Below are positions 63,001 through 64,000 of a stretch of DNA of 64,000 nucleotides, piece after piece. The position numbers were made by a program. Source of the DNA: a virus (lineage: Duplodnaviria > Heunggongvirae > Uroviricota > Caudoviricetes); the IMG/VR virus record IMGVR_UViG_2718217885_000009, one strand, 5' to 3'. Position 1 is the first letter of the stretch, and every line of letters starts with the position of its first letter.

Positions 63001-64000
63001 ATAACACCGCTGAGGAAATCAAAACCAGTGCCGGATCCACTGACCAGAGATGAGTTTAGCCGTCTCATTGATGCCTGCCATCATCAACAGACCAAAAACC
63101 TCTGGACAGTGGCTGTTTTTACAGGGATGCGACACGGTGAAATTGCCGCACTTGCATGGGAGGATATCGACCTGAAAGCTGGCACGATAACAGTGCGAAG
63201 AAATTTTACAAAAATAGGTGATTTTACGCTACCAAAGACTGACGCAGGCACTAACCGGGTTATACATCTTCTGGCACCAGCAATTGAAGCACTTAAAAAC
63301 CAGGCGATGCTTACTCGTCTTGGCAGGCAGCATCAGATCACTGTTAAATTACGCGAGTACGGAAGAACAATTTTGCACGAGTGCACTTTTGTTTTCTGTC
63401 CGCAAATCGTTCGCAAGAATCACAAGGCGGGTATTAACTACGCGGTAAGCTCCATCGGAGCGACATGGGATTCAGCAATAAAAAGAGCGGGTATCCGATC
63501 CCGTAAAGCGTATCAGTCACGCCATACCTATGCGTGCTGGGCTTTATCTGCCGGAGCAAACCCGACATTTATTGCGTCACAGATGGGGCACTCCAGCGCC
63601 AGCATGGTCTACAATGTTTATGGTGCATGGATGCCTGAGTGCAGCGTGACTCAAGTTGCCATGTTGAATAATGTCCTTAATGCCCGTGCCCCAGACGTGC
63701 CCCAAAGTGACCAGGAGGATGAAATAAAATTATATTTTTCAAAATGATAAACCATATCCTTAGACATGTTGAAACGATGGCACGCGCAGTCGCTGAGGGT
63801 GCAAGCAAAGTCGATGGCGCAGAAGTTGTCGTTAAGCGTGTACCGGAAACCATGCCGCCGCAATTATTTGAAAAAGCAGGCGGTAAAACGCAAACTGCAC
63901 CGGTTGCAACCCCGCAAGAACTGGCCGATTACGACGCCATTATTTTTGGTACACCTACCCGCTTTGGCAACATGTCCGGTCAAATGCGTACCTTCCTCGA

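Follow-up and report, generated by a model that had tools for sequence, protein, structure and literature searches.

The right-hand end of the window, by which we mean the whole 64,000-nt stretch of DNA that was analysed, carries a tyrosine integrase gene (int) directly upstream of, and co-oriented with, the remainder of the host gene wrbA, which in lysogens is followed next by yccJ (Table 1). The integrase comprises Arm-DNA-bind_2 and Phage_integrase domains (Pfam); int and the adjoining junction share 99.1% nucleotide identity with AP000422, in which int is annotated, and 87 phage records, mostly of Stx1a- or Stx2a-converting phages, contain an int that is 99-100% identical. The wrbA gene is a long-established insertion site of Stx phages, and the same junction is present in 215 of 5,426 complete E. 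coli genomes. PGAP places a 1311-nt int coding sequence at the identical junction in NZ_CP027323.1 and in EDL933; the GTG at 62413, proposed as the start of int by the ORF finder, was rejected in favour of the ATG at 62437 given this 1311-nt coding sequence and a transcription start site (62415) that lies downstream of the GTG. Further to the left, in the early-left region of the prophage, a 126-aa ORF on the plus strand (61059-61439) contains a VQP tandem peptide repeat present four times (SVQPVQPVQPVQPVQH), which is encoded by a short tandem DNA repeat.

Table 1. Features of the int-wrbA junction; positions are those of the window.
Feature	Position	Strand	Basis and remarks
int transcription start (P_int)	62415 (EDL933 1334844)	+	Cappable-seq, 8/8 conditions, scores 47-241
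int, tyrosine integrase, 436 aa, 933W/VT2-Sakai (Sp5)-type	62437-63747	+	ORF; PGAP; Pfam
Internal promoter in int 3' end	63609-63623	+	-10-like CTACAAT at 63609-63615; starts at G63622 (major) and G63623
Two GCCCCA(G/A)A repeats, putative arm-type Int-binding sites, P arm	63688-63706	+	Inside int coding end
ATGA overlap: chimeric ORF start (63744-63746) and int stop TGA (63745-63747)	63744-63747	+	Sequence, ORF and translation; overlap identical in RefSeq
Phage-derived 5' part of the chimera (MINHILRH and first base of V9)	63744-63768	+	G63768 phage-specific, A in attB
17-bp imperfect common core GACATGTTGAAACGATG	63763-63779	no strand	attB GACATaTTGAAACgATG; attP GACATgTTGAAACcATG; 2 mismatches between phage and host
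7-bp overlap TTGAAAC, strand-exchange segment	63769-63775	no strand	Identical in phage and host
Host wrbA remainder	63776-64000, running past the window end	+	From third base of native codon 17; Met18 at 63777-63779

The junction sequence at 63730-63790 reads ...ttatatttttcaaaATGAtaaaccatatccttagacatgttgaaacgatggcacgcgcag..., with caaaATGAta at 63740-63749, and the sequence, the int ORF and the translation agree that the int stop codon overlaps an ATG in the wrbA frame. The first-pass annotation, made from the sequence of the window, had described this overlap and had called the ATG phage-supplied; both statements held, as did its rendering of the native N-terminus of K-12 WrbA. This ATG is entirely phage DNA, 22 nt leftward of the exchange segment, and the segment 63744-63768 is identical in the attP of phage vB_EcoP_phi315, a contiguous genome, and in 8 IMG/VR contigs, whereas it is missing from K-12 attB. 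Translation of 63744-63998 meets no stop codon and the frame stays open to the end of the window. The complete chimera comprises 192 aa, in which MINHILR (7 residues) stands in place of 13 native residues, making it 6 residues shorter than native WrbA. In the free phage the same ATG opens an ORF of 14 codons only (phi315), so that the ORF behind the int stop has 14 codons at attP versus 192 at attR.

The place of the crossover was determined by a four-way comparison of attB (K-12; ...tacgGACATaTTGAAACgATGgcacgc...), attP (phi315; ...ccttaGACATgTTGAAACcATGaagcattaa...), attL (GACATaTTGAAACcATG; NZ_CP027323.1, whose junction is 100% identical to that of the window) and attR (GACATgTTGAAACgATG; window and EDL933). 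Homology between phage and host at the attachment site extends over 17 bp only, two of which are mismatched. In attR, G63768 on the left is the phage base and G63776 on the right is the host base, while attL has the reciprocal pair; because the core mismatches segregate reciprocally between attR and attL, the exchange is confined to TTGAAAC, a heptamer annotated as misc_recomb (attachment site) in VT2-Sakai AP000422, and the crossover sits in wrbA codons 15-17. The 17-mer, in reverse complement, has also been quoted as the 933W site in K-12 (bioRxiv 10.1101/2022.08.08.503262). Uninterrupted wrbA from more than 5,000 genomes matches the window with 98-99.6% identity from about 63763. Judged by these sequence comparisons, 63744-63790 is the attR of a 933W/VT2-Sakai (Sp5)-type lambdoid prophage in E. 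coli wrbA, in keeping with the attachment junction that had been proposed for this gene. That the true junction lies elsewhere, or that the ATG comes from the host or from faulty assembly and its overlap with int is meaningless for the phage, is refuted by the comparison, which uses the att mismatches to place the exchange at 63769-63775; the ATG with at least 60 nt around it is also identical in the contiguous attP and in the 8 IMG/VR contigs, and the junction is 98.8-100% identical in the occupied genomes among the matches listed (two of the 215). We give this alternative practically no credence.

The other junction had been expected outside the window, and none of its parts was found within it: a search of the window allowing up to 3 mismatches recovered neither the wrbA 5' end nor the attL hybrid nor the P' arm. 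Judged against NZ_CP027323.1, which carries attL, the attL of the prophage in the window probably lies a few hundred bp to the left of position 1, and it falls outside the window because this prophage is longer than that of NZ_CP027323.1. In the attL of NZ_CP027323.1, the first 17 codons of wrbA and a phage-derived tail form a stub of 20 codons, and the native wrbA promoter and ribosome-binding site remain on this side. The left end of the window itself starts inside the far end of the prophage, where a minus-strand ORF of 1658 aa (183-5159) corresponds to an annotated gene for an LPD38-domain protein; a Hok/Gef fragment is also annotated within the matching stretch. Similarity to related prophages ends at 5166, and a 523-aa minus-strand ORF (5197-6768) begins there; the LPD38-type gene is 8.4 kb in NZ_CP027323.1 and may have been interrupted by an insertion in the window.

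The region around the int stop is likely to serve in recombination as well. In addition to the two repeats in the coding end of int, the P' arm of attP and attL contains four more of the same kind (GCCCCAAAT, GCCCCAAAC, GCCCCAATA and GCCCCAAAG), which fall within about 50 bp (2995-3045 of locus L005), and these GCCCCA(A/G)A repeats are likely arm-type Int-binding sites. As arm-type sites they would place the int stop, the ATG and the AT-rich spacer inside attP, where all three would presumably be under constraint from recombination as well as from the Int C-terminus. In more distant relatives (L051, L052 and L055), TGTCCCA/TGCCCCA repeats occur just past the int stop.

An open frame of 192 codons, entered through an ATGA overlap and retaining 187 of 192 residues in native form, invites the reading that the phage repairs the gene it interrupts, with the overlap coupling an active or partly active WrbA to int expression and thereby keeping wrbA function under phage control; other phages do restore the genes that they enter, as with the 3'-end duplications at icd or at tRNA genes, and duplications of this kind are mentioned in PMC3603311. 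How often such a start would arise by chance was estimated from Markov-simulated junctions, which were scored for an in-frame ATG upstream of the core without an intervening stop. An in-frame ATG was present in 25-42% of the simulated junctions, and within 10 codons in 13-29%; the arrangement is thus within what chance alone would produce. Searching IMG/VR for the core returned 120 stretches, of which most were chance matches and 8 were real. In every phage copy found (these 8 contigs) the P arm is 100% identical, so that its conservation is uninformative, either way, on selection for the ATG. A phage that rebuilds a gene would also be expected to bring a substitute for the part that it displaces, yet the phage has no homologue or copy of the displaced wrbA 5' end.

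More distant integrases provide a partial control. Profiling Int against one genome per species yielded 73 diverged relatives of at most 71% identity, none of which adjoins wrbA. The closest of these (64-71% identity; L008-L010 and L012-L015), from Pseudescherichia, Enterobacter, Citrobacter, Kluyvera and Trabulsiella hosts, lie directly upstream of a truncated yecE (…HVNCVEGNTTLY…), with 29 nt between the int stop and yecE, or 52 nt in L015, and the core at the yecE site (CATGTTAAC) resembles that at wrbA (CATGTTGAAAC). The family therefore seems, from these sequences, to retarget among protein-coding genes with related cores. No phage-supplied start codon was found in these yecE-sited closest relatives; supplying a start is thus not a habit of this integrase family, which counts against a repair of wrbA by the phage. 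Another Int clade adjoins a conserved sequence (...ACCTGCATGCCCATCAC...) on the opposite strand of a gene.

Transcription into the wrbA remainder was assessed from Cappable-seq data published for EDL933 (PMC10469882). Coordinates were transferred by equating the wrbA start of EDL933 (1333515) with window position 63744, the identity of the window and EDL933 having been checked for 63560-63800 only; the two are identical from 63577 through the junction. The int start site (1334844) is active in all eight conditions, and two start sites assigned to wrbA (1333637 in 5 conditions and 1333636 in 1 condition, scores 8-48) lie 121-122 nt upstream of the annotated wrbA start, the K-12 wrbA start site being 50 nt upstream (PMC10469882). 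Since EDL933 and the window are identical from 63577, the internal start, which is active in six of the eight conditions, maps to G63622/G63623 in the 3' end of int, 7 nt after CTACAAT. This motif is the probable -10 element; a consensus promoter scan did not flag it, and the promoter rests on the published start sites. On the plus strand there is no terminator-like site between int and the end of yccJ, the first one following yccJ, and int, the wrbA remainder and yccJ are co-oriented, which supports read-through. With the EDL933 start sites and the uninterrupted path into wrbA, the proposal made earlier that the wrbA remainder may be expressed from the int region is upheld at the transcript level. 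The published start sites also show that host DNA past attR (wrbA' and possibly yccJ) is transcribed from phage promoters in the lysogen. In the free phage the internal promoter would drive transcription through the attP core and on into the P' arm. Constitutive transcription of int, the internal start and the lack of a terminator between int and the wrbA remainder all suit a repair of wrbA.

In phage lambda, sib retroregulation sets the fate of int mRNA in the phage as against the prophage state. By analogy, the junction could have a role at the RNA level, the int mRNA gaining on integration a long wrbA'-yccJ 3' extension that replaces the P' arm; this could alter the fate of int mRNA, and yccJ could also be kept expressed from phage promoters. 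The shared orientation of the three genes and the position of the first terminator-like site after yccJ are compatible with this, as are the documented start sites of int and of the internal promoter, the change of the downstream ORF from 14 codons at attP to 192 at attR, and the sporadic detection of YccJ (Z1422) in the available part of an O157:H7 86-24 proteome. Against these points, yccJ can be transcribed in EDL933 from a start of its own (1332940; PMC10469882), which makes read-through unnecessary, no terminator-like or sib-like element lies downstream of attP in phi315, and the longer transcript is a consequence of the geometry rather than evidence for a selected function. We consider such a role unlikely.

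Translation of the chimera was examined by computing anti-Shine-Dalgarno pairing over the 25 nt upstream of the chimeric ATG. An overlap of the form ATGA is the classic geometry for translational coupling. The duplex energy at the chimeric ATG is +0.4 kcal/mol, while native wrbA reaches -8.5 and int -10.3; for want of a Shine-Dalgarno sequence, translation would proceed solely by weak termination-reinitiation at the ATGA. These values point to little or no translation of the chimera, although the AU-rich and unstructured surroundings might permit a degree of initiation even so. At the protein level, wrbA is not listed in the ribosome-profiling supplements for EDL933 and Sakai, a full-text literature search for Z1423 returned irrelevant matches only, and a literature search for protein-level data on the chimera in a verified wrbA lysogen found none. 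WrbA (Z1423), unlike the neighbouring YccJ, is also not among the proteins listed in the available part of a stationary-phase O157:H7 86-24 proteome, searched against an EDL933 database with about 47% of the proteome covered, from a strain whose wrbA occupancy is unconfirmed. The missing Shine-Dalgarno pairing tells against a repaired wrbA, as does the proteome, the latter being a weak point.

A further argument concerns the fold. The chimera aligns to solved (PDB) WrbA structures from its residue 6, equivalent to native residue 11-12, and its Pfam FMN_red match begins at profile position 17 rather than at position 2 as in native WrbA, positions 1-16 being lost; the Flavodoxin_1 score drops from 40.7 bits in the native protein to 22.8 in the chimera, under the cut-off of 25. 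The 13 lost residues correspond to strand β1, central in the flavodoxin-like sheet, and to most of the FMN phosphate-binding loop, elements that we take to occupy native residues about 3-15 of WrbA (...YYSMYGHI). Proteins of the flavodoxin fold hold the FMN phosphate with their conserved N-terminal loop (PMC10404700), and this contact gives much of the binding energy (PMC4015959). The chimera is therefore very probably non-functional as WrbA, and the loss of wrbA function in the lysogen is argued from this predicted damage to the fold. The claim that the prophage re-creates a translatable, N-terminally altered wrbA accordingly survives in part: the 192-codon ORF is open and is annotated as wrbA in RefSeq, whereas a usable WrbA is not supported, given the fold, the Shine-Dalgarno energies and the chance expectation. 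With β1 and most of the phosphate loop missing, a repair of wrbA by the phage appears very improbable. Much the same holds for two further proposals, that reinitiation yields a stable FMN-deficient WrbA variant with an effect (tetramer poisoning or a flavin-independent one) or that integration state controls int mRNA in a sib-like manner; both strike us as far-fetched, and if either were true, the ATGA overlap would be a selected feature of the att site.

We think it likely that the overlap is a fortuitous by-product, very probably without function, of an attachment junction that is already known. According to this explanation, integrase exchange within TTGAAAC inserted the prophage into wrbA codons 15-17. 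As int runs to within 22 nt of the core, its last codons, the TGA and the AT-rich spacer all belong to the P arm of attP. The spacer happens to be open in the wrbA frame, and the A that precedes the TGA makes an ATG; with both in place by chance, integration fuses 8 phage codons to wrbA codons 15-198, giving the ORF of 192 codons. This fusion is transcribed by read-through from int and by the weaker promoter inside the int 3' end, while the RpoS-dependent native wrbA promoter and its ribosome-binding site, 60 kb away at attL, would drive the 20-codon stub only. Any protein that weak termination-reinitiation at the ATGA might still yield would lack β1 and most of the FMN loop; wrbA would thus be disrupted in the lysogen and restored only on excision.

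The fortuitous start has practical consequences for annotation. In both NZ_CP027323.1 and EDL933, the wrbA annotated by RefSeq is 579 nt long and shares 4 nt with int, and the exact 192-aa chimera occurs on at least 1,000 contigs; because the phage arm supplies an ATG by chance, annotation pipelines report a complete 192-aa "NAD(P)H:quinone oxidoreductase". Lysogens therefore look wrbA-positive in gene-content analyses, which can mislead. The chimera falls in a 90%-identity protein cluster that is represented by a 436-aa integrase and contains both integrases and WrbA fragments, which suggests either int-wrbA read-through calls in some assemblies or a clustering artefact; among the members is a 181-aa form consistent with a start at native Met18 (63777). 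For EDL933 clones that no longer carried 933W, a preprint reported a wrbA G25A/V9I point mutation and discussed it as an altered attB (10.1101/2022.08.08.503262). Position 25 of the chimeric ORF is window position 63768, which is G in attP and attR and A in K-12 attB; to judge by these bases, the reported mutation is probably the restored attB after excision, misread through the chimeric wrbA annotation. Biologically the junction, a textbook one, is of little weight; its practical value lies in this annotation caveat.

Several known systems share parts of this arrangement. Phage 21 and e14 at icd, like prophages in tRNA genes, regenerate the host gene that they enter. They have in common with the window an intragenic attachment site and a frame that stays open across the junction by way of phage codons; however, they bring a homologous copy of the displaced 3' end and yield a full-length, near-identical product from the native promoter, whereas here the 5' end is displaced, phage and host have 17 bp in common, 13 residues give way to 7 that are unrelated, and it is attL that retains the native promoter and ribosome-binding site. 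Both defining features of gene-regenerating phages fail at the wrbA junction, and the resemblance is superficial. Translationally coupled ATGA pairs show the identical geometry with both ORFs on one transcript, and functional pairs usually have a Shine-Dalgarno sequence within the first of the two genes; in contrast, the pairing here is +0.4 kcal/mol and the two ORFs adjoin only after integration.

Insertions that disrupt a gene and are reversed by excision include those of the Listeria phage in comK, of SPβ in spsM and of Stx phages in yecE or mlrA/yehV. As at comK and spsM, the prophage in wrbA splits a coding sequence, excision brings back the intact gene, and wrbA has been classed by Bobay et al. 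among the genes disrupted by prophage integration (PMC3603311). A difference from the comK/spsM type is that evidence of regulated excision serving the host was not found at wrbA; the leftover wrbA fragment also has a start codon, which is why annotation does not flag it as a pseudogene. The attR sites of 933W (EDL933) and of VT2-Sakai (Sp5) in wrbA share with the window an integrase of 99% identity, the TTGAAAC segment, the 17-bp core, the 4-nt overlap between int and wrbA and the 192-aa chimeric wrbA coding sequence in RefSeq; at the junction they differ in nothing, and the prophage of the window differs from them elsewhere.
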